Below are positions 1,013 through 26,109 of a DNA stretch of 64,000 nucleotides, in pieces. A program made the position numbers and the translations under genes. The stretch is taken from positions 1 through 64,000 of the IMG/VR virus record IMGVR_UViG_2879469214_000007; one strand, 5' to 3'. Every line of letters begins with the position of its first letter. The stretch's first letter is position 1. Below the pieces are notes generated by a model. The model did no database searches and was not told the DNA's origin. It saw only the letters and a program-made list of their open reading frames with translations. The DNA comes from a virus (Duplodnaviria; Heunggongvirae; Uroviricota; Caudoviricetes).

Positions 1013-1630
1013 ATGAATAGAGAAAGAGCAATAGAGATTGTTCAAAAGTGTATTGCTCTTTCCGGTAATAACCCAAGTATAGAGGAAGCAAAGACTGCAA
1101 TCCTTATGGCACAGCGGTTAATGGCTGAGCATAATATCAGTGACAATGATATCGAGGTAAGCAATGAGCAGAAAGAAGTAGCTCATAATGTCGTTGTTGA
1201 TTGGGGTAGGAATCCATTATGGAAAAGGATTCTTGCTTCGATAATTGCAGAGAGTTTCCGGTGTTTTTGGTATGTTCGTTCGGACAACGGGAAAACACAA
1301 ATCATTATTATGGGGCTGGTTGCCGATGCCGAAATAGCTAGGGAACTGTACTCGTTTGCAATACAATGCTTAGCCAAGGAATTAGCAAAACATAAATACA
1401 ATTCATCGTTGAAAAACGATTTTATATATGGATTTATTGACGGGATTCGACTAAAGCTATCGCAACAGACAGATAGTAATGCTAATACATTATCGCTAGG
1501 ACTACCGGTTGAGGTTAGAAAAGAAGTGGACAGACTAGGTTTTGTTTACACGACTAGCCGAGGTGTGGGTTCTAATGATGACAAGACAGCATATAATATT
1601 GGATTACAGCAAGTCGAAAACTATTTCTGA
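1013..1630 (+). CDS. DUF2786-like protein
   Basis: The N-terminus (RERAIEIVQKCIALSGNNPSIEEAKTAILMAQRLMAEHNI) matches the DUF2786 signature found in many phage and plasmid proteins. Confidence 0.4.
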   Translation: MNRERAIEIVQKCIALSGNNPSIEEAKTAILMAQRLMAEHNISDNDIEVSNEQKEVAHNVVVDWGRNPLWKRILASIIAESFRCFWYVRSDNGKTQIIIMGLVADAEIARELYSFAIQCLAKELAKHKYNSSLKNDFIYGFIDGIRLKLSQQTDSNANTLSLGLPVEVRKEVDRLGFVYTTSRGVGSNDDKTAYNIGLQQVENYF

Positions 1631-1745
1631 AAAGAAATTTGCTATAAAAATTGTGTTCCCTGATAGGCTGTGCTATAATCACACCATAAGAATAGCTACC
1701 ATGGAGACGTGGTTACATATATAAATACAAATACTATTCAGGAGG

Positions 1746-2300
1746 GTGATTATTATGCCAACTAAGGCTGAACAGGAAGCGGAAAAAAAGAAGCAAGAGG
1801 AAGAGGAAGCTCGAAAAGCGGCTGAACAGGAGAATGACAAAGGAAACACACCAGAGGGTAGCCCTGCAATGGCTTCCTTGAGCTTAAAAAGAACCTATGC
1901 TAAGCGATTGGTTAATGCCATTGCCAGCCTAAACAACATTGAGGTTGAAGAACACGAGGATTGCTATTTGATTGCATCGCCATTTATTCGGGTGAATAGG
2001 AGCGATGTTGAGCATGTGGCTGGGAAAATGTCAGATGCGAAGTGGCGTATGCTTTTCGTCAACCGCTCAGGAGAAATTCGTGAGTTTACCAATGAGCGAT
2101 TCATTATGGGTACTCCTGTACAAGCTACGCAAGCAGAAGATGAAAAGGATGTCGTTCAAATTAATGTCCGTATCGACTCTCTTGTTAAAGCAGATGTAGA
2201 CAAGTACCGTTCAAAAGACTTCCTAGACCTTACTCAAAATGCTTTTGTTGAAGAAGCACTGAGAGAGTTCATCGTTAATATTAAAAAAGACTTGCTATAA
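1746..2300 (+). CDS. hypothetical protein with K/E-rich N-terminus
   Basis: 184-aa ORF with a strong SD AGGAGGG. The N-terminus (AEQEAEKKKQEEEEARKAAEQ) is low-complexity and charged. Confidence 0.4.
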   Translation: MIIMPTKAEQEAEKKKQEEEEARKAAEQENDKGNTPEGSPAMASLSLKRTYAKRLVNAIASLNNIEVEEHEDCYLIASPFIRVNRSDVEHVAGKMSDAKWRMLFVNRSGEIREFTNERFIMGTPVQATQAEDEKDVVQINVRIDSLVKADVDKYRSKDFLDLTQNAFVEEALREFIVNIKKDLL

Positions 2301-2313
2301 AAGGAGGATTTTT

Positions 2314-2565
2314 ATGCAAATACCGGAACTAGTCATTGGTAAGTCGGCTATTTATTTCGACCGTGACAAAGTTCCTCATGCCATAAGAGTAATGGTGACA
2401 AAACACATTGATGGAGACGAGTATATAGTTTCTGACTTCGATAATCCAAGTGTGTTTTATAAAACAGGCGGTTGGCACTTCACGATTGAAAAAGAGAAGG
2501 ACCAGCCAGATGAAACCGCCCATGCTGTTTATCTTAGCGCGTATGAGGATGCAATCGGGGCTTAA
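2314..2565 (+). CDS. hypothetical protein
   Basis: 83-aa ORF with SD AAGGAGG 7 nt upstream. Confidence 0.4.
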   Translation: MQIPELVIGKSAIYFDRDKVPHAIRVMVTKHIDGDEYIVSDFDNPSVFYKTGGWHFTIEKEKDQPDETAHAVYLSAYEDAIGA

Positions 2566-2626
2566 TTAGCCCCTTGTTTTTCTCATAACGTTATAATATA
2601 ATTATAATACAATAAGGAGGGATGTT

Positions 2627-2869
2627 ATGCGCTTCTTCATGCAAATTGATGGGGATGGTATTTATGAAATCAATACGAGTGAAATGGAAATGGAAAAGGA
2701 ATTTATAGAAGCACTTAATGCACGTAAGAAAAGCGGGGAGAACATTACCTTTGACATCACAGGTCTTGGGATTCTTCAAGTGGACGATATGAAGTTGGCG
2801 TATAAGAAAAGGACAGTCCATATCTTCTGCACTCTAATATTAGATTACAGGGAGTATCTTGTACTATGA
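2627..2869 (+). CDS. hypothetical small protein
   Basis: SD AAGGAGGG upstream. It is preceded by a TATAATATAATTATAATA promoter-like motif, and its stop overlaps the next start. Confidence 0.4.
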   Translation: MRFFMQIDGDGIYEINTSEMEMEKEFIEALNARKKSGENITFDITGLGILQVDDMKLAYKKRTVHIFCTLILDYREYLVL

Positions 2870-3192
2870 TTTCACTGGAAAATGAAGTTAGGGAACTCAT
2901 AAAACGTAGACGGAATCAGGTTTTAATCCATTCAATCATTTACTACCGCTATGGGACTTCGGTAATTGATGATAAGAAGTTTGATGAATGGGCTTACCAG
3001 CTTGCCGCACTTCAATTACAATATCCTGAGATTTCGGAGCAATGTCCATATGCACAAGAGTTCAAAGGATTTGATGGAACAACCGGGTATCATCTGCCAA
3101 TGTACGATAGCGGATTGCTTAGCAAAGCATTGTACATTATTCAGATAAGCCAACAGTTCAATAAAGAGCAACCGGGAGGACACGCAGGATGA
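2866..3192 (+). CDS. hypothetical protein
   Basis: 108-aa ORF translationally coupled to its neighbours by ATGA overlaps. Confidence 0.35.
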   Translation: MISLENEVRELIKRRRNQVLIHSIIYYRYGTSVIDDKKFDEWAYQLAALQLQYPEISEQCPYAQEFKGFDGTTGYHLPMYDSGLLSKALYIIQISQQFNKEQPGGHAG

Positions 3193-3422
3193 AAAGTAAA
3201 ATGAGCCTTTGGAATGCAATGATGATTTACAGGGATAATGTAGAGCAACTTGAAAGGATAAAAAAACAGCTCTATGTCGCGGCAATGAATAATCATAATA
3301 TGGAAGTGAATAGATTGCGCCCAATCATTCGAACGTATGAGCATGATATCGAAGTTTTTGAACAACAGATTATTGAGTTTGACATGATTCAAAGTAGTTC
3401 ACCAAAGGAGGGGCAACAATGA
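3189..3422 (+). CDS. hypothetical small protein
   Basis: 77-aa ORF whose start and stop are both coupled to neighbouring genes. Confidence 0.35.
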   Translation: MKSKMSLWNAMMIYRDNVEQLERIKKQLYVAAMNNHNMEVNRLRPIIRTYEHDIEVFEQQIIEFDMIQSSSPKEGQQ

Positions 3423-3805
3423 ATAAGCAGGAGTATGAAGCTTTGACTGGCGTTAGTGAAATCCCGAATATCATTCAGGCTTTTGACTTGACGAACCAAG
3501 AAGACCGGACATTGCTGTATGGCTATACGTGTGACAGAGAAACATGGCATGTGTATTTAAAAGGTCTTGAAATCCATACCTACGTATATGGGGGCTATAA
3601 TAGCAGTGAAGGCTATGAGGTTTTTCCGACCCATAATAATCATTTCGTGCCGGACAAGAGACTGTATCCAGAACGCTGTGACTTTGAGTTCTGCAAGCTT
3701 CTTAAGATGCAAGGAGTGAATTTAACGTTTACCAGTTGGTCCGATGATGTAACCCAGCGTAAATATTATGGCGAGATTATTAAGGCAGAGGGGGATGACC
3801 AATGA
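3419..3805 (+). CDS. hypothetical protein
   Basis: 128-aa ORF with SD AAGGAGGGG upstream. Coupled to the next gene. Confidence 0.4.
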   Translation: MNKQEYEALTGVSEIPNIIQAFDLTNQEDRTLLYGYTCDRETWHVYLKGLEIHTYVYGGYNSSEGYEVFPTHNNHFVPDKRLYPERCDFEFCKLLKMQGVNLTFTSWSDDVTQRKYYGEIIKAEGDDQ

Positions 3806-4011
3806 CAAGCGAATACCTCGAAACTCATACAAGCAGTTGGCACTTGGAGAAAGAGAAGGGTCGTGCCGCGTTATGGAGCTTCTTCGATAGGGTAGATTGG
3901 AAGCATAAACACGCTATCAAAGTGGATGGTGAGGTTAAGTCTGTGTTTGATACAAATGAACATGAGCTTGACCAGCATGAAGTTTTGCGGATTGTGTCTG
4001 AGTGCCTATGA
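3802..4011 (+). CDS. hypothetical small protein
   Basis: 69-aa coupled ORF. Confidence 0.3.
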   Translation: MTSEYLETHTSSWHLEKEKGRAALWSFFDRVDWKHKHAIKVDGEVKSVFDTNEHELDQHEVLRIVSECL

Positions 4012-4259
4012 AAAATATATTTTTAGATGTTACTGTTGTCATCCCTGTATTAACATTGATAAAAGGCGAAAAAGACCATAAGTTGGAGTGTCATAAGGTA
4101 GCCAATCTTAACACCCCTGCTGTTCAGAATATACTATTCTACCTTGAGGAAGGTCATTTGCTCAAGATTAAGAACCTTGGATTGCTCTCTGTTAAGTCAG
4201 TAGATTACACTGCTGGCGGCGGTCTTACGCTGGTTTGCAAGAGGTTGAGAAAAGGGTAA
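4002..4259 (+). CDS. hypothetical protein
   Basis: 85-aa ORF that is the last member of the coupled array. Confidence 0.3.
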   Translation: MPMKNIFLDVTVVIPVLTLIKGEKDHKLECHKVANLNTPAVQNILFYLEEGHLLKIKNLGLLSVKSVDYTAGGGLTLVCKRLRKG

Positions 4260-4267
4260 AAACAATC

Positions 4268-4320
4268 CGTTGTTTGTCCTTGTCAATACGCAAGTCAAAC
4301 ACTTATAATATAAATATAAG
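4268..4320 (+). promoter_or_regulatory. conserved phage promoter element (TTTGTCCTTGTCAA ... TTATAATATAAATATAAG)
   Basis: A copy of the repeated bipartite intergenic motif, placed directly upstream of the small-TM plus SPFH gene pair. Confidence 0.5.
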
Positions 4321-4334
4321 ATAACGAAAGGTTG

Positions 4335-4508
4335 ATGCGATTGATTGGTTTAATGTTTATCATCACGTTAGCTGTGGCTGGCATCATCTATCTGGCTCTG
4401 GCTCGTGTGGGGTTCTTCACAATAGTCGGGGGCTGGATGGAGAAGGCAACCAAGCCCTTCAAAGAGGGCGACAAGGTAAGGGAAAAATTAAAAGGAGATG
4501 GTAAGTAG
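4335..4508 (+). CDS. small membrane protein (57 aa) upstream of the SPFH gene, possible NfeD-like partner
   Basis: ATG at 4335 reads MRLIGLMFIITLAVAGIIYLALARVGFFTIVGGW... The ORF is not in the supplied track because it is under 60 aa. It has one TM helix and its stop overlaps the start of the SPFH gene. Confidence 0.35.
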   Translation: MRLIGLMFIITLAVAGIIYLALARVGFFTIVGGWMEKATKPFKEGDKVREKLKGDGK

Positions 4509-5397
4509 AATGAGTAAGTTTTCTAAAGGTGCAGTAGCAACAGGGATTGTAGCAGTATTGGTTGTAGGTGGATTCTTCGCTTTCACTACGAAGGTTAATA
4601 CAGGGAATGCGGGACTAGTAATCAATTTAAATGGTGGTTTGGAAGACAAGGTTCTGGGACAAGGATTAAAACCGGTTGCTCCTTGGAAAAAGGTTGTGGA
4701 ATATCCGATTTCAACAGAAACGGTATATATTGACGAGGAACACGGCTCGGCTCCGTTCCCAACGACCACGAATGAAGGCAAGCAAGTCCCGGTTGACGCT
4801 CGATATTCATACCACATGGATGTTAAGCGCCTACCAGATATTTATGCTAAGTTCAAAGGTGTAAGCAATACAGTTATTGAGAACGGCTGGATTAAAACCG
4901 AATTGCAAAAGACGGTTCGCTCTGTAACCTCTCAGTACACAGTATTTGAACTGAATGGAGCAAAGATTTCTGAAATCAACGGTAAGGTTCTTGAGCAATT
5001 GACTGCTGACCTAGCGAAAGATGGAATCGTTCTTGAAGACTTCTCCATTGGCGCGATTCATCCAGATGCAAAAACTCAGGAATCTATCCAAGCCAATGTA
5101 GACGCTCAACTTGCCCTGCAAAAGCTAGAAATGGAGAAAAAGCAAAAGGAAATCGAAGCTGAGAAAGCTCGCATTGAAGCCAAAGGTAAAGCTGACGCGG
5201 CTACTATCGAAGCGCAAGGTACTGCTGATGCCAATAAGTTGCTTGAGAAATCAATCACGCCGCAACTCATTCAGTTGAAAGAGCTTGATGTTCAAATGGA
5301 GATTGCTAAGAACCAAAACCTTCCACGCATTTTGATGGGCGGCAACGGTGACACAGGTAGCGCAATTCTTAACATCCCAAGTGAGTTTACAAAGTAA
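4498..5397 (+). CDS. SPFH/band-7 (prohibitin/flotillin-like) membrane protein
   Basis: An N-terminal TM segment (VATGIVAVLVVGGFFAF) is followed by a band-7 core (GNAGLVINLNGG...VYIDEEHG). The C-terminus is a coiled coil with EKKQKEIEAEKARIEAKGKADA heptads. Confidence 0.7.
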   Translation: MVSRMSKFSKGAVATGIVAVLVVGGFFAFTTKVNTGNAGLVINLNGGLEDKVLGQGLKPVAPWKKVVEYPISTETVYIDEEHGSAPFPTTTNEGKQVPVDARYSYHMDVKRLPDIYAKFKGVSNTVIENGWIKTELQKTVRSVTSQYTVFELNGAKISEINGKVLEQLTADLAKDGIVLEDFSIGAIHPDAKTQESIQANVDAQLALQKLEMEKKQKEIEAEKARIEAKGKADAATIEAQGTADANKLLEKSITPQLIQLKELDVQMEIAKNQNLPRILMGGNGDTGSAILNIPSEFTK

Positions 5398-5464
5398 TTA
5401 TATTATAAATATAATATTATACTGGAGCTGAAAAGCTCCTTTCTAATTATAAGGGGGTGAAAAA

Positions 5465-5728
5465 ATGGAAGTTATTCAAAATCCAGAGGAAAATGCGAAC
5501 AAAAATGCGAACACTAATGAGGATATCGTGAATATTATCCTTGCAGGGTACTACAGTTTAATAGAAGCGATTGAAAAAGAAAACGGAATAATGGATGAAA
5601 CTGATAAGGTAATTTTGTTCAATGGATATATTGCTGGTATAACATTGATAGCACCGGGGTTAGCAAATGTTATCAATGAAGATATACTAAGCAAGGTTAA
5701 TCTAACTGTAGTCAATCATAAAATCTAA
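5465..5728 (+). CDS. hypothetical protein
   Basis: 87-aa ORF with SD AAGGGGGTG upstream. Confidence 0.35.
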   Translation: MEVIQNPEENANKNANTNEDIVNIILAGYYSLIEAIEKENGIMDETDKVILFNGYIAGITLIAPGLANVINEDILSKVNLTVVNHKI

Positions 5729-5744
5729 TATTAGATAGTAATTT

Positions 5745-5935
5745 TAGTAATTGGTGACTAGCTAATTCGATGTTTTTTGCGCAAGGAAGAAAAAGGAAAT
5801 CCCTGAAATTACGCGCAAAATCACGAATTAAGTCGATTTTTGTCGAAATAAAGTGGCTTTAGTCACCTGATTATAGTTCGAACTATGTATATACCCGCAT
5901 TACGACAGGGTTAAACAAAAAAATAAAAATTTTTT
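5745..5935. other. ORF-free structured intergenic region with nested inverted repeats
   Basis: Outer inverted repeat GGTGACTA ... TAGTCACC. Inner inverted repeat TTTTGCGC ... GCGCAAAA. It also shares the motif AGTCGA(T/A)TTT with the 10.53-10.68 kb spacer. Confidence 0.3.
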
Positions 5936-5937
5936 TG

Positions 5938-5990
5938 GGTTTGTCCTTGCCAACTTCTTCCGTCGTAATTATAATATAAATATAAAACAA
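5938..5990 (+). promoter_or_regulatory. conserved phage promoter element (TTTGTCCTTGCCAA-N-TAATTATAATATAAATATAA)
   Basis: Canonical copy of the bipartite motif, 40 nt upstream of the amidoligase pair. Confidence 0.55.
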
Positions 5991-6025
5991 ACAGAGACTA
6001 TTCAAGAAGGAGATAGAACGCACTT

Positions 6026-6916
6026 ATGAATAATGAATTAGCTGTACGCCGCAAAGTTGGAATTGAGATGGAAGGCTATATTGAAAACTACCCCGAGGAC
6101 GTTGAGTTGGTCGGAGTGAAGATTAAGCAAGACGGCAGTTTAGATAACTGCGACTGGGATTATCTCAATGAACCATTCGGCGTTGAGCTTTGCACGGAAC
6201 CCATGACAGACATATCTCTCCTTCGTGAAGTCTGGAAAGACATGAAGCATAACAACTGGACGGTTGATGATAGAGCAGGAACTCACATCCACGTAGACGT
6301 ATCGGATTTCAGCGTGGAAGAGAAGGTTAAGCTGTTGCGCTTCGGTAAAGGAATCGAACGAATTATCTTCCTGTTCGTGGACGACTACCGTAACAATAAT
6401 GAATACTGCTATCCGCTCCATAAGGAATGGAGAAAGGTTTTCCGTGGAGATAACAAGTACGCGGATATCGACTGGAACTCCATCACAGATGACGAATTTG
6501 AGGGTGTGAACGAATACCTGTACCAGCGTTTCCGCAATCCAGACCGCTACTACTCTGACCGAGAGCAAGTTATCTGGAACGGCAAGTACCAATGGATGAA
6601 TATCTTTGGAAGCCGATATCCAACGGTTGAGTATCGTCTGTATCAAGCAGTGGAAGACGTAGAGGTTCTGATTCAACAAGCGCTCATGTCGGAAGCTATC
6701 GTAAACCTTGTGAAGAACCACAGCTTGGCACAATTGGAATACATTATCAGGGAACTCTACAAGCAGGAAACAGTTGACGCTACTGTAGAGATGTTTTTCG
6801 AGACATTGGGACTGGACTTCAAACTTGAAGTTCGCGGGGAAAGAGCACAGAAATACTTGGCTGGTAAGCTGGCGGCTAAAAATGCAGTAAGTGAAGTTGT
6901 AGAACAAGGGGCGTAA
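6026..6916 (+). CDS. amidoligase / GCS2-like carboxylate-amine ligase (glutamine-synthetase fold), paralog 1
   Basis: VGIEMEGYIEN gives an E-x-E metal/ATP motif, AGTHIHVDV gives the His pair, and TVEYRLYQAV gives the E-[FY]-R motif. All three are typical of the GCS2/YbdK and phage amidoligase family. Confidence 0.55.
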   Translation: MNNELAVRRKVGIEMEGYIENYPEDVELVGVKIKQDGSLDNCDWDYLNEPFGVELCTEPMTDISLLREVWKDMKHNNWTVDDRAGTHIHVDVSDFSVEEKVKLLRFGKGIERIIFLFVDDYRNNNEYCYPLHKEWRKVFRGDNKYADIDWNSITDDEFEGVNEYLYQRFRNPDRYYSDREQVIWNGKYQWMNIFGSRYPTVEYRLYQAVEDVEVLIQQALMSEAIVNLVKNHSLAQLEYIIRELYKQETVDATVEMFFETLGLDFKLEVRGERAQKYLAGKLAAKNAVSEVVEQGA

Positions 6917-13110: not shown

Positions 13111-14826
13111 ATGAAAACAAAAACTATCTATCCAGCTAGCTTGATTGCAGACTTCTATAAGGTTGCTCACCGTATGCAGTATCCCGATGGAACTGAGTTC
13201 GTCTATAGCAACTGGACACCACGCTCCACCTACATGAAGGGCGCTAAGGGAGTAATCGCATTCGGATTGCAAGCTTTCACAAAAAAATATCTGATTGAAT
13301 ACTTTAACACTCACTTTTTCAGCCGCACAAAAGAGGAAGTTGTTGCTGAGTATGTCCACTACATTAAGCACACGCTGTTTGTAGAAGAAGTAGACGCGAC
13401 ACACATCGCTGATTTGCACGAGCTTGGGTATCTGCCACTTCACATTAAAGCCGTCAAAGAAGGAACATTCGTGCCGCTGAAAGTGCCAATGGCAACGGTA
13501 GTAAATACGAATGCTAAATTCTTTTGGGTCACAAATTATATTGAAACTATTTTCTCTTCGGAGAACTGGTTGCCTTCTACGAGCGCAACAATCGCTCATG
13601 AGTATAAAAAGCTTATGACAAAATACGCTAAAGAAACGGGCGGAGATTTGGGGGATATTCAGTTCCAAGGACATGACTTCTCGATGCGTGGAATGGTTCT
13701 GGAAGCCGCTATTCTGAGTGGAGCTGGTCATCTTACATCCTTCTATGGAACAGACACCATTCCAGCTATTCCGTTCCTTGAGGAATACTATAATGCTGAT
13801 GTAACGAAGGGAATTGTGGGTACATCCGTTAATGCGACTGAGCACAGTGTTATGTGCGCCGGAGGACAAGAGAATGAATATGACACCTATGAGCGCCTTA
13901 TTACAAAGGTACACCCAACAGGCATCCTCTCCATCGTATCTGACACTTGGGATTTGTGGAATGTGCTGACGGTGACACTTGCTAAGCTTAAGGGTTCAAT
14001 CATTACTCGTGACGGTAAAGTTGTTGTTCGCCCGGATTCCGGCAATCCTGTTGAAATCCTCTGTGGTAAGAAGTTCGAGGTTATTGATTCACCTGACGAA
14101 GCATATGACGCTTTCAGAGACATTATCCATGATACTGCTTCTGAGGTTACTGGGGAGCACCAAACGGGGCTAGAGAGCTATACTATCCGCTACAAGGCTG
14201 GTGATAAATACTACAAGGCAAAATTCAGCGTTGATTACAACCGATATGACAAACGCTACTATTATGTTGACGGTATTAAGCTTGTGTCCAATGTTGAATA
14301 TACGCCTGAGCCATCTGACCTTGGAGTAATTGAAATCCTATGGAACATCTTTGGCGGCACAATCAATGAAAAGGGCTATAAGGTTCTTGACCCGCATATT
14401 GGGGCTATCTACGGTGATTCCATCACTCTTGAGCGTGCAGAAGCAATCTGCAAAGGTCTAAAGGAGAAAGGGTTCTGCTCCACAAATGTCGTGTTCGGTA
14501 TTGGCTCCTTTACTTATCAATACCAAACGCGTGATACCTTTGGATTTGCAATGAAGGCTACTCATGTCGTGATTAACGGAGAAGAACGCAATATTCAAAA
14601 AGACCCTGCCACTGATACAAACAAAGGCAAAAAATCGGCTACAGGTCGCCTAATTGTTTATCGTGATGCTGAGACAGGGGAGATTACACTTGCTGATGGG
14701 CTTACTATCGACCAGCAAGAGCTTTACAGTGAAGTCGATATCCTTGAGGATGTATTTATTGACGGCAAACTGGTTCGTGACGAAACACTGGAAGAAATCC
14801 GTGAGCGAATCCAATCACTAATCTAA
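13111..14826 (+). CDS. nicotinamide phosphoribosyltransferase homolog (NAMPT/NadV-like; candidate Namat of NARP1)
   Basis: The N-terminus (YPASLIADFYKVAHRMQYPDGTEFVYSNWTPRS) and internal GTDTIPAIPFLEEYY match the NAMPT family. At 571 aa it is about 80 aa longer than bacterial NadV, suggesting an insertion. Confidence 0.7.
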   Translation: MKTKTIYPASLIADFYKVAHRMQYPDGTEFVYSNWTPRSTYMKGAKGVIAFGLQAFTKKYLIEYFNTHFFSRTKEEVVAEYVHYIKHTLFVEEVDATHIADLHELGYLPLHIKAVKEGTFVPLKVPMATVVNTNAKFFWVTNYIETIFSSENWLPSTSATIAHEYKKLMTKYAKETGGDLGDIQFQGHDFSMRGMVLEAAILSGAGHLTSFYGTDTIPAIPFLEEYYNADVTKGIVGTSVNATEHSVMCAGGQENEYDTYERLITKVHPTGILSIVSDTWDLWNVLTVTLAKLKGSIITRDGKVVVRPDSGNPVEILCGKKFEVIDSPDEAYDAFRDIIHDTASEVTGEHQTGLESYTIRYKAGDKYYKAKFSVDYNRYDKRYYYVDGIKLVSNVEYTPEPSDLGVIEILWNIFGGTINEKGYKVLDPHIGAIYGDSITLERAEAICKGLKEKGFCSTNVVFGIGSFTYQYQTRDTFGFAMKATHVVINGEERNIQKDPATDTNKGKKSATGRLIVYRDAETGEITLADGLTIDQQELYSEVDILEDVFIDGKLVRDETLEEIRERIQSLI

Positions 14827-19598: not shown

Positions 19599-19603
19599 TA
19601 ATT

Positions 19604-19638
19604 GACTTTATCCGTTCATTCGGGTAAGGTCTTTTTTT
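19604..19638 (+). terminator. rho-independent terminator
   Basis: 11-bp stem GACTTTATCCG/CGGGTAAGGTC with two G-U pairs, loop TTCATT, then T7. Confidence 0.6.
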
Positions 19639-19826
19639 CATTTTAGGGCGCATAAGAATGATGGGTAAGAGAAAAAGTAACTAAGTGTTAGCATATAATA
19701 ATCTATTGTGAAATATTCATATAGTGCAAGATTCATATATAATAATATTTAAGAACATTTGTTCCTCTACGGTGCTGGAAGTGGTATATTATTATACGAT
19801 AATCTCATATGATGGAGGACTAACTA

Positions 19827-20017
19827 TGCCCAAGACTCTGCCGCAATTCAAGTCTTTAGATGAAGCCATCGCTTATTACAAAATGTATGGAGAGCTGAAA
19901 TACTTCGGGCGTGCCGGAGAAAGATATGAATATTGCGTTTACAACTACCATGTCAGAGATGGTCGTACACTTGGAATCAACATATATGATGATGGTAAGG
20001 TTGAATTACGTAATTAA
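19827..20017 (+). CDS. hypothetical small protein
   Basis: ATG at 19827 with SD GGAGGAC upstream (MPKTLPQF...). The longer track ORF starting at 19724 is unlikely. Confidence 0.4.
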
Positions 20018-20091
20018 TAGCGCCTAAAAATATAATATTTGACTCTTGATTTTAAAACTTAAAAAAGTTACAATATTTAGTCATTTCTTAA

Positions 20092-20120
20092 TTGACCAAT
20101 GGAATATTTAGGAATATAAT
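20092..20120 (+). promoter_or_regulatory. sigma-A-type promoter TTGACC-17-TATAAT
   Basis: Near-consensus -35 and -10 boxes, 25 nt upstream of the SD/GTG start of the 279-aa gene. Confidence 0.55.
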
Positions 20121-20152
20121 GGATATAAAATTGGAATAAGGAGGAATGGCTA

Positions 20153-20992
20153 GTGGGGGACTTACAAATTCAAAATATCACCAACTTGGACTACCTTGTG
20201 CAAATGACACAGATGGCTTATAAAACAGAGCAGTTCGAGCGAGTCATACATATTGCCGAACACCTCTACTCATGTGCCCATGATACGTATAAACAGGTGC
20301 AGTTTCTTAAGGCAAAAAACAAGAAAAAGCGGCTCAATATTAACAGACCGCTTGTATACTATTTTGGCATATCTCACTTGCTCAAAGGTCTTGCCTTACA
20401 AAAGCTAGAGCGCTACCATGAGTCCCTAGAGTGCATTGATAAGTACCAAGAACTTGGCTGGTTCATTGGTCTGGATGCTGATGGTCAAGTTGTAGTAGAC
20501 GATTTTCGAATGTTTGCACAAGCAAACAGATATTCTGTTCATATTCTGATGGGTAACAAAGAGGTATTAGATGAATATATTACTTTCCTACTAGACCATC
20601 CCGAAGAAATCATTCCAGAGTGCATAACTATCTTGGAAGCCGCAATAGCACATGGCTGGCAAATAGACGAGTACCTTGAGAAGATACTTCCCTATAACGA
20701 ATCATTCGCCTTGCTTGAAGAAGCTGAGAATGTAAGCTTATTTGTGCATTACATGTATTGCCTTGCTTTATATAGAATGCCTTTGTGTAAAAGTGATGCA
20801 ATAGATGCATTAATTAGAGGTATTGCAGTTTCCTGTAAAATAGAGCTTGAAGCCGGTTTCCGGAAATGCTGTGCGCTTTTTGAGTCACTTAGGGATTCCG
20901 CCACAGAGAACCAGGTTGTCCAGTATAAAAATATATTAAAAGGAGTGATATCCAATGAAAAAAACTATGCTTATATTAGCTGTCATGTGTAG
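20153..20992 (+). CDS. helical (TPR/RNPP-like?) putative peptide-sensing regulator
   Basis: 279-aa protein predicted to be mostly helical and rich in L/Y/E/K. It has a GTG start with SD AAGGAGG. A signal-peptide micro-ORF overlaps its 3' end, which is the typical RNPP receptor/peptide layout. Confidence 0.35.
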   Translation: MGDLQIQNITNLDYLVQMTQMAYKTEQFERVIHIAEHLYSCAHDTYKQVQFLKAKNKKKRLNINRPLVYYFGISHLLKGLALQKLERYHESLECIDKYQELGWFIGLDADGQVVVDDFRMFAQANRYSVHILMGNKEVLDEYITFLLDHPEEIIPECITILEAAIAHGWQIDEYLEKILPYNESFALLEEAENVSLFVHYMYCLALYRMPLCKSDAIDALIRGIAVSCKIELEAGFRKCCALFESLRDSATENQVVQYKNILKGVISNEKNYAYISCHV

Positions 20993-21068
20993 CTTTGCTT
21001 TCATCTCCTTTGTAGGTACAAGCACGACGACTACTTATACTACGAGTAACCACGGTTCAGGCTACTAA
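20955..21068 (+). CDS. secreted pro-peptide (37 aa), candidate signalling peptide
   Basis: MKKTMLILAVMCSFAFISFVG is a signal peptide, followed by TSTTTTYTTSNHGSGY. SD AGGAG lies 9 nt upstream. It overlaps the receptor gene by 38 nt. It is absent from the ORF track because it is under 60 aa. Confidence 0.45.
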   Translation: MKKTMLILAVMCSFAFISFVGTSTTTTYTTSNHGSGY

Positions 21069-21072
21069 AGAT

Positions 21073-21100
21073 TGACTTGTTTAATCCTACATGTTAATAT
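21073..21100 (+). promoter_or_regulatory. sigma-A-type promoter TTGACT-16-TAATAT immediately downstream of the peptide gene
   Basis: The -35 box TTGACT is at 21073 and the -10 box TAATAT is at 21095. Confidence 0.45.
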
Positions 21101-21148
21101 GATTTTGCTTGCTGTTGGGGGCGTATATTTATATACCCGCAACGGACC

Positions 21149-21176
21149 AATCCCCTGAAATATGGGGATTTTTTAT
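21149..21176 (+). terminator. intrinsic terminator / attenuator in the leader of the 21207 gene
   Basis: AATCCCC-TGAAATAT-GGGGATT followed by T6. It lies only about 50 nt downstream of the predicted transcription start. Confidence 0.5.
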
Positions 21177-21206
21177 TTTAATCTACACGTCTCAGGAGGG
21201 GTTATT

Positions 21207-21425
21207 ATGTTCGAAGAAGAAGATGAAGTCAGGTATTGCCCTGTGTGCGAAGATGACCAAGAGCTAGATGAAATAGAAGAAGATGTTTTTGCTTGTGCTG
21301 TTTGCGGATACATCAGCGATTCTGATTTCAATCCTATGAGCGACTATGACCCTAATATTGAAGACCCTGAAGAGTTAGCTGAGAAGATTGCTAGAGATGC
21401 AGAGAAAGCCGCAGATAGATGGTGA
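21207..21425 (+). CDS. acidic zinc-ribbon protein
   Basis: ATG at 21207 with SD AGGAGGGG upstream. The sequence carries CPVCEDD...CAVCGY, and the protein is very acidic. Confidence 0.45.
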   Translation: MFEEEDEVRYCPVCEDDQELDEIEEDVFACAVCGYISDSDFNPMSDYDPNIEDPEELAEKIARDAEKAADRW

Positions 21426-21454
21426 TATATATATGAAAAATCATGGAGCACCGA

Positions 21455-21490
21455 CCACCAGAAGATAAAAAATCTTCCGGTGGTTTTTTA
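21455..21490 (+). terminator. rho-independent terminator
   Basis: CCACCAGAAG...CTTCCGGTGG stem followed by T6. Confidence 0.6.
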
Positions 21491-21635
21491 TTAATTAATA
21501 AGACCTAATTTTTGGACTATTTCACAAAGATAGGATTTTGTACATATGTATTGTGTAAAATTTAATTGTACACAATGTAATTTTTGGCGTAAAAAAAGAA
21601 CCGCCATCATCGTAAATACGATAGCGATTTCTTTC

Positions 21636-21965
21636 TTACTCTTCTTTGTTTTTTACATCATAGACAACTTGGATGCCCCTTGCATTCCCATTTAAGTATC
21701 CTTGTTCATAGAAATCAATTCCATCAGGAGTTATTGTGACCGCTACAGCTTCGCTGTCATTATCGACTGGCTTAGCTACTATATATTTTCTTTCTAACAA
21801 ATATGCTATCGCCCTATGTTTTTCTATGTGTTCTGTTTGGTAAAATGCGCTTTTAGGAGCAATTACAGAAGCAGTTTTTTCAAACCATGATGAATAAATT
21901 TCTGCAATAATATCGTAACGCTCTTGTATTCTTTCTTTTATGCTTATTTCCAGCTTGTCAATCAT
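21636..21965 (-). CDS. hypothetical protein
   Basis: 109-aa ORF with SD GGAGGAAATC upstream on the minus strand. Confidence 0.4.
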   Translation of the reverse strand: MIDKLEISIKERIQERYDIIAEIYSSWFEKTASVIAPKSAFYQTEHIEKHRAIAYLLERKYIVAKPVDNDSEAVAVTITPDGIDFYEQGYLNGNARGIQVVYDVKNKEE

Positions 21966-22024
21966 TCTGATTTCCTCCTTTAATTAACCAAAGGAAGCCT
22001 TGTGGAAAAGGCTTCCTAAATTTA

Positions 22025-22612
22025 TTATTTCACTTCCGGTTCATCGGATATGATTACTCCTCCACCATCATAACCTTTTTGCGCCGAAGTGAGCAAATGA
22101 GCAATATGTGTTCCACTGCCGCTAGTGCCACCTAAGTATGTTACCGTACCTGTTACTTTGATACGATATTGCCCCTTTTCAGAGATACGGAATGTTTTTT
22201 CATCCCCTGCTTGACTACCTAAACCACCTGAATAAACGAAAGGGTGGCTATCAATAGTCTCCCAAGTAAAGTCAAGGAAACTTGTTCTGTATTGAAGCTC
22301 CATATTTAAATTAATAAAGCTAACCATTTTACCGGGATTTGAATAGTTCCAACTACCAGTAACAGCTCCAAAGCGCGGGTCAGAGATATCAACAGTAAAA
22401 GGGCTAGTTGCCTGTATTTCTACATTGTCATTCCCCGGAGCGGCTGTGACTGCCGGTACCTGACCGCTTTCATTTACTGAGATAATTGGTGATTGGTAAT
22501 CAATACTAGGAACTCGGCTCTCGTCTACTGTTGATGCTGACGCTAATCCTGTAGGAATTAGTAAAAATACCAACATCATTGCCATGAGTAAACCTGTAAG
22601 TCTTTTTTTCAT
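22025..22612 (-). CDS. secreted protein with signal peptide
   Basis: MKKRLTGLLMAMMLVFLLIPTGLASAS is a signal peptide. The mature part is Gly/Ser/Thr-rich. Confidence 0.5.
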   Translation of the reverse strand: MKKRLTGLLMAMMLVFLLIPTGLASASTVDESRVPSIDYQSPIISVNESGQVPAVTAAPGNDNVEIQATSPFTVDISDPRFGAVTGSWNYSNPGKMVSFINLNMELQYRTSFLDFTWETIDSHPFVYSGGLGSQAGDEKTFRISEKGQYRIKVTGTVTYLGGTSGSGTHIAHLLTSAQKGYDGGGVIISDEPEVK

Positions 22613-22919
22613 TTTTGACTTGCACCTCTTTCTTGGATTTATGAGATAACTATATTTGGATTTTTATAGAAGTTCAATACATTTTAATCCTTATAAGGAA
22701 AAATGATTCTTTGGGTAAAATATAAGACAAATTCATCTAGGTTTCGACATTTTATTTATTGATTATTTCGTCGATTACTGTAAGTTAGTAATGTATTGTT
22801 GATGTTTGAGTCGATTTTTAGATTCTAAAGACAAAAAAATAGCCTACCCCTGACTGTAAGGGATAGACTCATTGGCATAAAATAATGTCGAATTAATCTC
22901 ATACTAGCATGTATATGTG

Positions 22920-23357
22920 TTAGCCTACAAGTATCATGTGATTAGACCTTGCCCACTCCTGCATTGCTTTTTCCTTTTCTCGAAGCGGTTTCTCAAGGTC
23001 TGGAATAAACTTGTTTTTCTCAACCCATCGCGCATATCGGGTAATGTCATTAAATATATAAAAAGACGTGTGCTCCTTAACGTCTCCTGAGTATAAGTTG
23101 TCATGCGTAAAGTACGTTGGGTCGATTGCTTCCCCATCAGCATTAACAATAAAGCAGTGACGAGCCATAAGGTTCGCTTCTGGCGAAATGCGAATATACC
23201 CATAAGCGACTTTCCACTCTTTGCCGTGGAACTTCTCCGCGAACTCAACCGCTGTATAATAAATATTTGTGTAGCATTCTTTTGGTTTAAGCATATCTTG
23301 GCACTCGTTATACACCTCAAGTGACAAATCATGATTAAACGGATGTTGCTTAATCAT
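22920..23357 (-). CDS. transglutaminase-like (Cys-His-Asp) protein, paralog B
   Basis: Cys in KECYTNIYY, His in MARHCFIVN and Asp in ADGEAIDPT follow the same order as in the 18978 gene. Confidence 0.35.
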   Translation of the reverse strand: MIKQHPFNHDLSLEVYNECQDMLKPKECYTNIYYTAVEFAEKFHGKEWKVAYGYIRISPEANLMARHCFIVNADGEAIDPTYFTHDNLYSGDVKEHTSFYIFNDITRYARWVEKNKFIPDLEKPLREKEKAMQEWARSNHMILVG

Positions 23358-24262: not shown

Positions 24263-25606
24263 ATGGCACGATTAACAAAAGATGAACTTAGAAAGTCGCG
24301 TTGTAGAAACGGAGCGCATGGTACTATTGCTAGAGTCGAAAATTATACTCCAGAAGATATTATAATAAATACCTATCTACATACTGATAATGAGGTAGCA
24401 TTGGAGCTAGCAAAGAAATATGAATACATGCTTCTCACTGCTAAGTTACAACCTAAAAAATATATCAAGGAAAGAGATAATCTATTTTTAGACTTAGCGA
24501 AGTGGATTCATGATAACAAGCTGTACCGTGAATGGGTTGATTTTGTTTATTTCGTCCACTCTCGCGGTAGCCGACTCATTGAAATCCTCTCAAGTGCCTA
24601 TATGTCTGAAATGATGGAGTCTTGGAACTACTTAACCGGATATGATGGCACCAACATTATCGGTCTTACATCTCAAAACGAGTTGATTATAGCGCCAGAA
24701 TACTACGGCGACTGGGATATAGAGCTTCATGAGATGTATAAAAAGCTTGAAAAAAATAAAATAAGCAAAGAAAAGTACGCCGAGTTCTTTTTCGGACCCA
24801 ACGGGCAAAAGAATTTTAGCACTGAGCGGAACGAAAGTCTTGCCGACATCGCTATTTTTGGTATGATTCCGTACATTAATGAGCGCACGACGAATATTGT
24901 TCCAAAGGACTTCTATCCTCATGCGGAAGCTGATAGGCTTACCCCAGCCCGTAAGTGGAAACCCACGGAGTTTTATAAAGAGCAACTTCAATCAAGGAAG
25001 TATCTTATAGACCGCAAGGGTATAAAATTATACTTGAAGAATGCGGGGAACTGGTCAGAGGCTATGCTTATGGAGGACGTGACCAAGAGCGGACAAATTG
25101 TAATGCTCTATCGTCTATCTAATCCAGAGGGCAGTACCTATGGATTCTATAACCTACAGGATGACTATTTCTTTTCCTGCTATAAATACTCAGATGGACC
25201 TCAGCTCCACTTAGAAATCGAAAATTTGATTCTTGAGCTGTACACAGAGGTTGTTTGCGGCTTAGAAATAGATGTTAAGCGTGCCTATGGCATTCAGGAA
25301 GTTGAAGATATCTCTAATACCGAAGGGCACCGCTCCACTCGCCTATTCGTCCAGTATCAGCAATATAACGAGAAAACTGATTCGGCTGAGCTAAAAGGCA
25401 AGCGTAAAGGTGGGCACACTCAGCGACCTCATGAGCGGCGCTATGCGCTTCGTAAGCTATCAGGTAATCGTGTTGCTTCTGATGAAGCTATTGAGCGCGC
25501 AAAAGAGCTAGGTATCGAGCTACAGGAAGGCTACACCTTCGTTCAATCGTACAGCGTTGGTGGACTTAAAGACATTCGTAAAGAAATCAAGGGCGGCTCC
25601 AAGTGA
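24263..25606 (+). CDS. hypothetical protein (447 aa)
   Basis: Long ORF with SD AGGAG upstream. No recognised motif. Confidence 0.45.
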   Translation: MARLTKDELRKSRCRNGAHGTIARVENYTPEDIIINTYLHTDNEVALELAKKYEYMLLTAKLQPKKYIKERDNLFLDLAKWIHDNKLYREWVDFVYFVHSRGSRLIEILSSAYMSEMMESWNYLTGYDGTNIIGLTSQNELIIAPEYYGDWDIELHEMYKKLEKNKISKEKYAEFFFGPNGQKNFSTERNESLADIAIFGMIPYINERTTNIVPKDFYPHAEADRLTPARKWKPTEFYKEQLQSRKYLIDRKGIKLYLKNAGNWSEAMLMEDVTKSGQIVMLYRLSNPEGSTYGFYNLQDDYFFSCYKYSDGPQLHLEIENLILELYTEVVCGLEIDVKRAYGIQEVEDISNTEGHRSTRLFVQYQQYNEKTDSAELKGKRKGGHTQRPHERRYALRKLSGNRVASDEAIERAKELGIELQEGYTFVQSYSVGGLKDIRKEIKGGSK

Positions 25607-25791: not shown

Positions 25792-26109
25792 GTGGTCAGA
25801 GTAGAGATTATTATGAGATTTAACACCATATTATTCTTGAAGTATGATGGGAACAGGCGTGGTGTATTAATTACTTCCTATAAAGGAACAGCATTTCGTC
25901 CGGGTAGCTTTAATTTTTGGGTTACGAAACTTAAGGAGGAACACTCTTTCAGCCTTGAAAAAGCTGACAGGAACATAGCTGTCAATATAGATGAAATACA
26001 GGAGGTTAAAGTTGAACGATTTAAAATAGTTGTCAAATTTAAAGATGAGCTAGAGTGCCCTATATCAGAGACTTTTCACAGACACCTAAAAAGAATAGGT
26101 AAAGCATAA
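25792..26109 (+). CDS. hypothetical protein, possible LytTR-like DNA-binding domain
   Basis: The C-terminal part (FSLEKADRNIAVNIDEIQEV) resembles the LytTR F-x-R-x-H-R-S-x-IVN-x-x-I core. The match is weak. Confidence 0.25.
   Translation: MVRVEIIMRFNTILFLKYDGNRRGVLITSYKGTAFRPGSFNFWVTKLKEEHSFSLEKADRNIAVNIDEIQEVKVERFKIVVKFKDELECPISETFHRHLKRIGKA

Follow-up and report, generated by a model that had tools for sequence, protein, structure and literature searches.

A putative Alo-type peptide signalling cassette with a short receptor lacking the helix-turn-helix domain on a large Paenibacillus phage-like element

Does a pair of overlapping genes on a phage-like genome, one for a helical protein and one for a tiny peptide with a signal sequence, amount to a communication system, and if so, of which kind and with what output? 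The question is raised by the viral record IMGVR_UViG_2879469214_000007 of the IMG/VR database, of which positions 1 to 64,000 were analysed (64,000 nucleotides (nt), in the following called the window). A first-pass annotation of these letters had proposed a cassette of the arbitrium (aimR-aimP-aimX) or Rap-Phr type, made up of a receptor gene, a pro-peptide gene and a regulated downstream transcript. Our comparisons place the first two genes, here called aloR and aloP, in the published Alo family. We give a probability of about 0.6 to the reading that they form an Alo-type (RRNPPA) peptide quorum-sensing cassette, a self-contained unit from promoter to terminator on a large Paenibacillus phage-like element, with an output via a partner protein. 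The receptor probably does not switch on the downstream gene as first proposed.

AloR-AloP systems of the Paenibacillaceae were described as an RRNPP-like receptor together with an open reading frame (ORF) of 32-50 amino acids (aa) with a signal sequence, and mass spectrometry of supernatants revealed Alo peptides (Voichek 2020, PMC7425212). A profile of the window receptor, searched against 1.84 billion representative proteins, recovered 319 relatives in two forms, a short one of 263-293 aa and a long one of 441-488 aa. Short relatives match the receptor end to end, long ones only from about residue 190 onward; hhalign aligns residues 7-280 of the short form to residues 192-469 of the long AloR-like form (probability 100%, E 5e-64). 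Among the published receptors, AloR17 (Ga0124138_13185) is 33% identical to the window protein (BLASTP E 7e-50), and the profile matches Alo7 (P0021, E 7e-86) and a variant of Alo15 (P0024, E 1e-75). Alo17 was tied to the window protein directly: the record IMGVR_UViG_2690315748_000001 (locus L021) is the 154-kb scaffold Ga0124138_13 of P. polymyxa Mc5Re-14, which like the window is classed as viral by IMG/VR. Its 293-aa homolog (record positions 112380-113261) is Ga0124138_13185, the AloR17 of Tables S1/S2, and the accompanying micro-ORF is identical letter for letter to AloP17. In the same way AloP7 was found beside a 285-aa homolog (L023, Alo7) and the AloP15 variant beside a 290-aa homolog (L028), and in the polymyxa group, homologs of 275-287 aa that lack a peptide and are each accompanied by a divergent 114-aa XRE gene are consistent with Alo18. 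All named close homologs come from Paenibacillus and the phage homolog from a Brevibacillus phage, in agreement with the restriction of the family to Paenibacillaceae.

In a neighbour-joining tree of the common domain, one side holds 50 of the 55 short representatives, and 47 of these make up a single pure clade, so that the short subfamily appears mostly monophyletic. By these relationships, the window cassette belongs to the short-receptor subfamily together with Alo7, Alo15, Alo17 and Alo18. This kind of system is not new, because Alo15, Alo17 and Alo7 of P. polymyxa have the same architecture: a homologous short receptor (285-297 aa), an aloP that overlaps the receptor 3' end with its Shine-Dalgarno (SD) sequence inside the receptor gene, and a peptide of 35-45 aa with a Sec-type signal and an end containing [N/Y]HG. 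What sets it apart from them is its peptide, NHGSGY, and the sequence of its receptor, which is only 33-40% identical to those of the Alo15, Alo17 and Alo7 clades; receptors of the NHGSGY clade are 79-97% identical to each other, the closest relative of the window receptor being that of locus L006 (97%). The cassette is thus a new pherotype within a known family. The suggestion of a "divergent or new member" made by the first-pass annotation holds for the pherotype and fails for the family.

The receptor is short because the helix-turn-helix (HTH) domain and the N-terminal repeats are missing altogether. In long relatives, the first 75 residues or so match XRE/SinR-type HTH domains. In the window, the reading frame is open for just 8 codons upstream of the aloR start codon, and a hidden Markov model of the long-form HTH matched none of the window ORFs. 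All 62 of 62 long representatives match the window at aloR only and via their C-terminal part, with neither an N-terminal remnant nor a second AloR found by them. The window receptor is therefore the C-terminal sensor module of an AloR without the XRE-type HTH. The same domain is absent from all members of the short subfamily examined. This is at odds with the literature, in which an N-terminal HTH was listed for all Alo receptors (PMC7425212) and, later, AloR was described as "HTH-9TPR" and Rap as the sole RRNPPA group without an HTH. Table S1 of PMC7425212 itself gives receptors of 285 aa for Alo7, 290-291 aa for Alo15, 293-297 aa for Alo17 and 275-294 aa for the peptide-less Alo18. Since the Alo7, Alo15-variant, Alo17 and Alo18-like receptors have no HTH, the domain is not family-wide as the authors listed, and these statements do not hold for them. 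The window locus, which likewise lacks this defining feature, is filed here under the short Alo subfamily and not under canonical HTH-AloR.

An AlphaFold2 model of the 279-aa protein (built with 15 homologs; predicted local distance difference test score (pLDDT) 82.4, predicted template modelling score (pTM) 0.76) is confident and all-helical, its 13 helices forming hairpins, and describes the protein as a helical repeat protein resembling tetratricopeptide repeats (TPR). Of the two features that the first-pass annotation wanted to see in such a model, TPR-like hairpins are present and are the only element in it; an HTH is found neither there nor by profile comparison. The top matches of a fold search were LGN and miscellaneous TPR proteins, with RRNPPA members present below them; the highest TM-score among the Foldseek matches listed belongs to 6t3h (TMq 0.57), which we take to be the structure of Rap of plasmid pLS20. 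When solved structures were searched by sequence, the short-form profile retrieved no RRNPPA structure and the long-form profile only XRE HTH domains, and AimR, NprR and Rap are therefore undetectable by sequence. PADLOC returned nothing significant for receptor or peptide, and Pfam, NCBIfam and PHROGs likewise nothing for the peptide. An Rfam search of positions 19600-23000 gave nothing relevant, and neither the receptor accessions nor NHGSGY were found in the RRNPP_detector supplement files that were searched.

The pro-peptide AloP (MKKTMLILAVMCSFAFISFVGTSTTTTYTTSNHGSGY) begins with MKK followed by a hydrophobic core of 17 residues. Among 523 ORFs of 25-60 aa with an ATG start on both strands of the window, only aloP joins a basic and hydrophobic N-terminus with an SD sequence. 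It is conserved in four other loci (L006, L003, L029 and L030), and the arrangement extends over the short clade: internal SD equivalents (AAAGGAG, GAAAGGG or GGAAGGAG) occur in all peptide-bearing short-AloR loci, and there the micro-ORF starts 3-55 nt before the receptor stop codon (37-55 nt where the peptide ORF is complete). In every peptide-bearing locus the peptide combines MKK(x) and a hydrophobic core with a C-terminus of the form x-[N/Y]-H-G-x-x-x, and the [N/Y]HG motif is common to the window peptide and the published AloP7, AloP15 and AloP17, whose ends were given as ...VFYHGANH, ...PSNHGVFSYTA or ...SPENHGWN, and ...PNNHGANS, respectively (Table S1 of PMC7425212).

The hexapeptide NHGSGY is invariant in the five loci. 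Its six codons vary synonymously only, as seen in the window (AAC CAC GGT TCA GGC TAC), L003 (AAC CAC GGC TCC GGA TAT) and L029 (AAT CAC GGA TCA GGT TAC), which points to purifying selection on the C-terminus. The residue before it varies (S, S, Y, N and N), and so does the threonine-rich spacer. For AloP15, mass spectrometry revealed the secreted pro-peptide SVALP...VHPSNHGVFSFTA and the remnant SVALP...VHPS (PMC7425212), and the remnant places the cleavage at S|NHG. By analogy, we infer NHGSGY to be the mature signal of the window cassette.

A conserved sigma-A promoter drives the co-transcription of both genes, and their operon ends at an intrinsic terminator (Table 1). The promoter is kept in four loci (the window, L006, L003 and L029), as are the SD sequence AAGGAGG, located 8 nt upstream of the start codon, and the GTG start itself; the similarity of L003 to the window starts exactly at the -35 element. 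Downstream of aloP, the intergenic RNA folds into a stem-loop and the terminator (z-score -2.2), with the terminator stem kept in L006 and no Rfam family at these hairpins. Between the window and L006, aloR-aloP is nearly identical and identity falls right after the aloP stop codon. Synonymous divergence (dS) amounts to 0.121 for the receptor gene and to 0.585 for the zinc (Zn)-ribbon gene that follows, which indicates a recombination boundary after aloP. For aloR, the ratio of nonsynonymous to synonymous divergence (dN/dS) is 0.05-0.10 with saturated dS. Hence the two-gene cassette with its HTH-less sensor is under purifying selection and has been exchanged as a unit between the phage-like element and chromosomes.

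A direct repeat with the core GGAATA at the aloR promoter was considered as a regulon motif and rejected. It matches the 64 kb twice, both times at this promoter, and 27 of 100 shuffles give at least two matches. The first copy is kept in L003 and L029 and the second includes the SD sequence.

Most of what the first-pass annotation had said about the two genes proved correct. This applies to the all-helical 279-aa ORF with its near-consensus promoter, the 37-aa micro-ORF with its SD sequence and 38-nt overlap, the signal peptide and threonine-rich pro-region ending in SNHGSGY, the terminator, and the small acidic Zn-ribbon gene behind it. Likewise borne out are the pairing of an intracellular receptor with a secreted pro-peptide of RRNPP(A) type, by homology to the Alo family, the receptor length below that of Rap, the lack of an arbitrium signature in the peptide, and the location of the pair on a phage-like element.

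As for the mode of action, AloP would be exported by Sec and cut after the signal peptide and then a second time just before Asn32, which would release NHGSGY. The hexapeptide would build up with the density of element-carrying cells, presumably be re-imported by an oligopeptide permease and bind to the short AloR in its concave groove. The next step is the most speculative one: being without a DNA-binding domain, the receptor would act by protein-protein contact, as Rap proteins do, and touch a separately encoded small DNA-binding protein. The best candidate partner here is the linked 109-aa putative winged-helix protein, and for other short-AloR clades it is a small XRE-type HTH protein encoded next to the receptor; what points to these partners is linkage only. 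Through the partner, the receptor would control the operon of a secreted 195-aa protein, with peptide binding switching the interaction, and the Zn-ribbon gene downstream would be an unrelated neighbour expressed by read-through. A precedent is Rap of plasmid pLS20, which binds the repressor Rco and is released from it by Phr*; Rap-ComA is a further precedent for a receptor that acts on a partner protein.

The genes for aloR, aloP, the 195-aa and the 109-aa proteins are linked in the window, L003, L029 and L030. The 195-aa protein is 81% identical in L003 and 60% identical in L029, L030 and L033, and a model of the 109-aa protein resembles winged-helix regulators. In the three chromosomal loci (L003, L029 and L030), the pair of 195-aa and 109-aa genes is divergent from aloR across a shared control region of about 250 bp. 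The module is rearranged in the window, where two blocks are conserved separately, namely the aloR promoter block and a stretch of about 150 nt before the 195-aa gene, the latter in the window, L003 and L029. In L033, where the gene pair occurs without aloR, the part with the inverted repeat is not conserved. At 22744-22891, likewise upstream of the 195-aa gene, GTCGA/TCGAC occurs four times in 150 nt (at 22744, 22770, 22810 and 22887), and two of these copies give rise to a second inverted repeat (22743-22756 with 22879-22892). The linked winged-helix-like protein may bind at these copies. The 195-aa and 109-aa proteins are the best candidates for the cassette output; this linkage differs from Alo17 and Alo18, where an XRE gene is adjacent. 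The 195-aa, 109-aa and 63-aa proteins gave nothing significant in Pfam, NCBIfam, PHROGs and PADLOC.

Several points weigh against an Alo cassette with this kind of output. No model of Pfam, NCBIfam or PHROG matches the 279-aa receptor significantly (TPR_1 at E 0.089), and the fold search fails to set RRNPPA receptors apart from generic TPR proteins. Secretion, processing and receptor binding of AloP are carried over from other Alo systems. The gene pair is convergent with aloR in the window and not divergent as on the chromosomes. The small HTH genes next to other short receptors are a list of single cases. Furthermore, members of the 109-aa family are also encoded where aloR is absent, namely behind an SMI1_KNR4 gene in L031 and together with a 189-aa gene alone in L033, and immunity-type genes lie beside this family or the NHGSGY cassette (Imm17 at 1793-2014 in L029 and at 88-309 in L030; SMI1_KNR4 at 3416-3922 in L031/L032). 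The pair could therefore be a toxin/immunity-like island that is merely co-located with the cassette.

Table 1. Positions and properties of the cassette and its surroundings in the window, with small HTH genes beside other short receptors and the C-terminal motifs of short-clade peptides
Feature	Position or locus	Strand	Properties
aloR promoter	20092..20120	+	TTGACC-17-TATAAT; 11/12 positions match consensus
GGAATA direct repeats, possible operator	20100..20148	+	TGGAATATTTAGGAATA, TGGAATAAGGAGGAATG; promoter spacer and 5' untranslated region
aloR, short HTH-less AloR-family receptor	20153..20992	+	279 aa, GTG start; WP_124118384.1
aloP SD sequence	20940..20945	+	AAGGAG within receptor coding sequence, 9 nt before ATG
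aloP	20955..21068	+	37 aa; overlaps aloR 3' end by 38 nt
aloP signal peptide	20955-21017	+	MKKTMLILAVMCSFAFISFVG
aloP threonine-rich spacer	21018-21047	+	TSTTTTYTTS
aloP predicted mature hexapeptide	21048-21065	+	NHGSGY
Promoter-like match, probably not functional	21072..21100	+	TTGACT-17-TAATAT, with TG; 9/12 positions
Two hairpins ending the aloR-aloP operon	21112..21179	+	stem-loop 21112-21145; intrinsic terminator 21149-21170 and T-run
Zn-ribbon gene	21207..21425	+	72 aa, very acidic, two CxxC pairs
109-aa protein, putative winged-helix DNA-binding	21636..21965	-	
195-aa secreted protein, first gene of linked operon, candidate output	22025..22612	-	signal peptide MKKRLTGLLMAMMLVFLLIPTGLASAS
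Regulatory region of 195-aa gene	22649..22774	-	promoter TTGAAC-17-TATAGT (22677-22649); inverted repeat TCGAC-N21-GTCGA (22744-22774)
Small HTH neighbour, 70-aa XRE protein	Alo17		E 1e-6 to AloR HTH profile
Small HTH neighbour, 114-aa XRE protein	Alo18		
Small HTH neighbour, 63-aa HTH-like protein	L020		HTH-like by sequence only; below AloR HTH profile threshold
Small HTH neighbour, 56-aa TetR_N protein	L024		
Small HTH neighbour, 63-aa HTH_Tnp_2 protein	L026		
C-terminal motif NHGSGY	window, L006, L003, L029, L030		
C-terminal motif NHGVNG	L014, L016		
C-terminal motif NHGANY	L024		
C-terminal motif NHGMNH	L026		
C-terminal motif YHGANH	Alo7		
C-terminal motif NHGANS	Alo17		repeated
C-terminal motif NNHGVNMCL	L020		

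Compared with the systems known so far, the window receptor shares with Rap-Phr (pLS20 Rap/Phr* and the phage Raps of phi3T and phi105) an HTH-less TPR receptor on a mobile element, followed by a pro-peptide with a signal peptide and a C-terminal mature peptide, as well as the expectation that the receptor acts by binding another protein. Rap-family proteins are about 380 aa long and consist of an N-terminal three-helix bundle and 7 TPRs, whereas the window receptor is about 100 aa shorter, is without this bundle, has no Rap-related Pfam match and resembles Rap at the level of the fold only. Its loss of the HTH is independent, inside the Alo/AimR clan and not in the NprR/Rap clan. Receptors of the PlcR-PapR/Rgg type (HTH and five TPRs, about 285 aa) are similar in length but carry the HTH, and the window receptor corresponds instead to the C-terminal repeats of a nine-repeat receptor. 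Speculatively, then, the short AloRs may be a second, independent "Rap-like" invention in RRNPPA: an HTH-9TPR ancestor in the AloR/AimR clan could have lost its HTH once and given rise to about 50 clusters (at 50% identity) with an output via small XRE or winged-helix partners, and phages could have captured the cassette to tie a secreted protein to the density of carrier cells. We hold this to be rather doubtful as a whole.

Alo13 is so far the sole functionally tested Alo system. Its hexapeptide SHGRGG shuts off the AloR13-dependent activation of a downstream spo0E-like gene (PMC7425212). It belongs to the same family over the sensor domain and likewise has the order of receptor and then peptide and an HG core in the peptide. 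AloR13, however, has 467 aa with an N-terminal HTH and extra repeats and directly activates the spo0E-like promoter, whereas an HTH is absent from the window receptor and no spo0E-like gene lies next to it.

An alternative that we consider unlikely, yet the best surviving of those examined, takes the HTH-less receptor as a decoy or eavesdropper, that is, a peptide sponge or dominant-negative partner of the host's full-length AloRs, which would jam or rewire host Alo signalling such as a Spo0E-linked control of sporulation. The short form keeps exactly the C-terminal part of long AloRs, and in other RRNPPA receptors this part carries the peptide pocket and the dimer interface. Phage quorum-sensing systems linked to sporulation genes have been proposed in the literature, cross-regulation among Alo systems is reported, and the HG core of the window peptide is common to long-clade peptides such as SHGRGG. 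Several long AloRs are listed for P. xylanexedens genomes (Table S2 of PMC7425212). Short and long forms are only 21-28% identical, though, which makes specific heterodimers doubtful, and neither a Spo0E nor an AbrB gene lies near the window cassette. Moreover, short receptors form an old, mostly monophyletic subfamily that lies largely on chromosomes, with a cognate peptide for each member, and this favours an autonomous circuit over a decoy.

The arbitrium-like arrangement first proposed, in which the receptor would bind DNA downstream of the peptide gene and control a promoter, or read-through, to an aimX-like Zn-ribbon effector of lysis-lysogeny, has become improbable. It has the order of the genes on its side (receptor, peptide, terminator, small gene), the stem-loop before the terminator with the Zn-ribbon gene lying past it without a promoter of its own, the phage-like element, and the example of the long Alo13, whose target is the gene immediately downstream. 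Window and arbitrium of Bacillus phages also agree in a phage-borne RRNPPA receptor and a pro-peptide of about 40 aa leading to a C-terminal hexapeptide, and a structure-based phylogeny from the literature places AloR and AimR next to each other as sister groups (clan C). But a receptor without an HTH or other DNA-binding domain and without the N-terminal repeats is unlikely to exert direct promoter control in the style of aimR-aimP-aimX. The AimR model NF038310 of NCBIfam does not match the 279-aa protein; a long Brevibacillus phage homolog shows a weak N-terminal match to AimR (E 1e-3, far below the cut-off). The peptide is not of the xxxxGG/GA type, and the cassette is also chromosomal, with nothing seen here that links it to lysis-lysogeny.

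The second sigma-A promoter that the first-pass annotation had placed behind aloP is not supported: the region contains 13 sites of the same quality where 12.0 +/- 3.8 are expected from shuffles, and its -35 element, TTGACT in the window, is TCGATT in L006. The regulated downstream transcript is not supported either. The Zn-ribbon protein has a single homolog (L006) in 5.8 billion proteins, its matches in family libraries are to generic zinc fingers only, and the gene is absent from the chromosomal NHGSGY loci L003, L029 and L030; it was therefore discarded as a conserved output. Together with the missing HTH, a promoter at chance level and this ORFan argue against an aimX-like arrangement, and so does the recombination boundary after aloP. 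In the simplest reading, the aloR-aloP operon ends at the hairpins and the ORFan depends on read-through for its expression; by its distribution and divergence, the Zn-ribbon gene appears as a neighbour outside the conserved, exchanged cassette. The gap that separates the Zn-ribbon gene from the convergent 109-aa gene holds a near-perfect palindrome at 21550-21576 of the window, ATTGTGTAAAATT-A-AATTGTACACAAT, which could be an operator or a recombination site.

Still less probable is a small micro-ORF product, such as a bacteriocin-like peptide or a membrane anchor, that is secreted or sits in the membrane and does no signalling to the adjacent protein. Its hydrophobic N-terminus with a short polar tail would suit such a role, as would the Imm17 and SMI1_KNR4 genes in related neighbourhoods, but the peptide is strictly coupled to the receptor, whose 3' end it overlaps in every peptide-bearing short-clade locus, and the conserved part is the extreme C-terminal hexapeptide and not the hydrophobic segment or the spacer; in addition, secretion and processing have been demonstrated by experiment for AloP13 and AloP15, the former being a proven signal. 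Finally, a decaying 3' remnant of a full-length aloR with a leftover micro-ORF and no function hardly deserves credence: the protein does align only to the C-terminal 60% of long AloRs and is still named "DNA-binding protein" by NCBI, but the conserved promoter, SD sequence and GTG start, the low dN/dS, the single clade with roughly 50 representative clusters of this length, the selection on the peptide C-terminus and the missing N-terminal remnant upstream contradict it.

The host of the window is Paenibacillus xylanexedens, to which the receptor accession also belongs, and the window is part of a phage-like contig of 160,979 bp. Phage-type genes for replication and nucleotide metabolism (DnaE-like polymerase, ribonucleotide reductase, DnaB, primase and PhoH) lie within the window. 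The first-pass annotation had spoken of SPbeta-like genomes, and this label could not be kept. A megablast search against 50,697 phage records gave no nucleotide match to the window locus, and among the matches listed no phage protein exceeds 37% identity to the DnaE-like polymerase, for which reasons the element, judged from sequence, is a large Paenibacillus phage-like element and not demonstrably SPbeta-like. A polymerase 57% identical to that of the window is carried by a 146-kb IMG/VR contig. Short AloR cassettes were seen on contigs of similar size in three Paenibacillus assemblies (the window contig, L021 with 154,442 bp and L020 with 155,605 bp), two of which are IMG/VR entries; these may represent one family of large phages or phage-plasmids. 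The gene neighbourhoods around the cassette differ among the three, and a pattern-based search with the polymerase as marker did not retrieve the L020 and L021 contigs, a result that is uninformative on a common lineage.

Some further genes near short cassettes are worth recording. At L021, the neighbours of Alo17 are the 70-aa XRE gene on its upstream side, an AbrB-like gene, the gene for a 248-aa secreted protein and, 2 kb downstream, that for a full-length AloR of 472 aa; a phage context for Alo17 is not mentioned in PMC7425212. At L026 (positions 3501-6055; Paenibacillus sp., GCA_050433705.1), a short AloR of 293 aa with a peptide ending in ...VVIFNHGMNH lies on the chromosome between spoIVB and spo0A, with a 63-aa HTH-like gene behind it, and its position directly upstream of the gene for the master sporulation regulator is suggestive. 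Upstream of the window cassette, auxiliary metabolic genes are found, encoding a nicotinamide/nicotinate phosphoribosyltransferase of the NAMPT/NAPRTase type (571 aa, 13111-14826, plus strand) and YqeY-like, DUF932 and DUF6166 proteins. A stand-alone LytTR DNA-binding domain of 98 aa (25813-26109, plus strand; PF04397, 27.8 bits at a cut-off of 22.6) is encoded 5 kb from the cassette, preceded by a 447-aa protein without family match (24263-25606, plus strand). LytTR domains usually belong to quorum-sensing regulators of the AgrA/ComE type, which makes a free-standing one so near the cassette a curious find.

The long phage homolog mentioned above is found in Brevibacillus phage SecTim467 (KT151957.1, positions 1467-4926; locus L001), where a long AloR-like protein of 474 aa ("putative DNA-binding protein") and an upstream 454-aa protein, whose N-terminus matches the AloR HTH/N-terminal profile (E 7e-9), flank a Spo0E-like gene. 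A 45-aa ORF that overlaps the receptor end has no signal peptide. The arrangement fits the phage "sporulation-hijacking" quorum-sensing loci proposed by Bernard et al.

Peptide signalling borne by phages and plasmids controls the timing of lysis, transfer or host manipulation by mobile elements, with each new pherotype forming a new private channel. With the window cassette, the Alo family gains a phage-like carrier and NHGSGY as a new predicted signal. The missing DNA-binding domain of its short subfamily had gone unnoticed so far and contradicts what has been stated for the family. If the output indeed runs via a partner protein, the short AloRs would be a compact natural case, of about 280 aa, of a transcription-factor receptor turned into a protein-protein switch.

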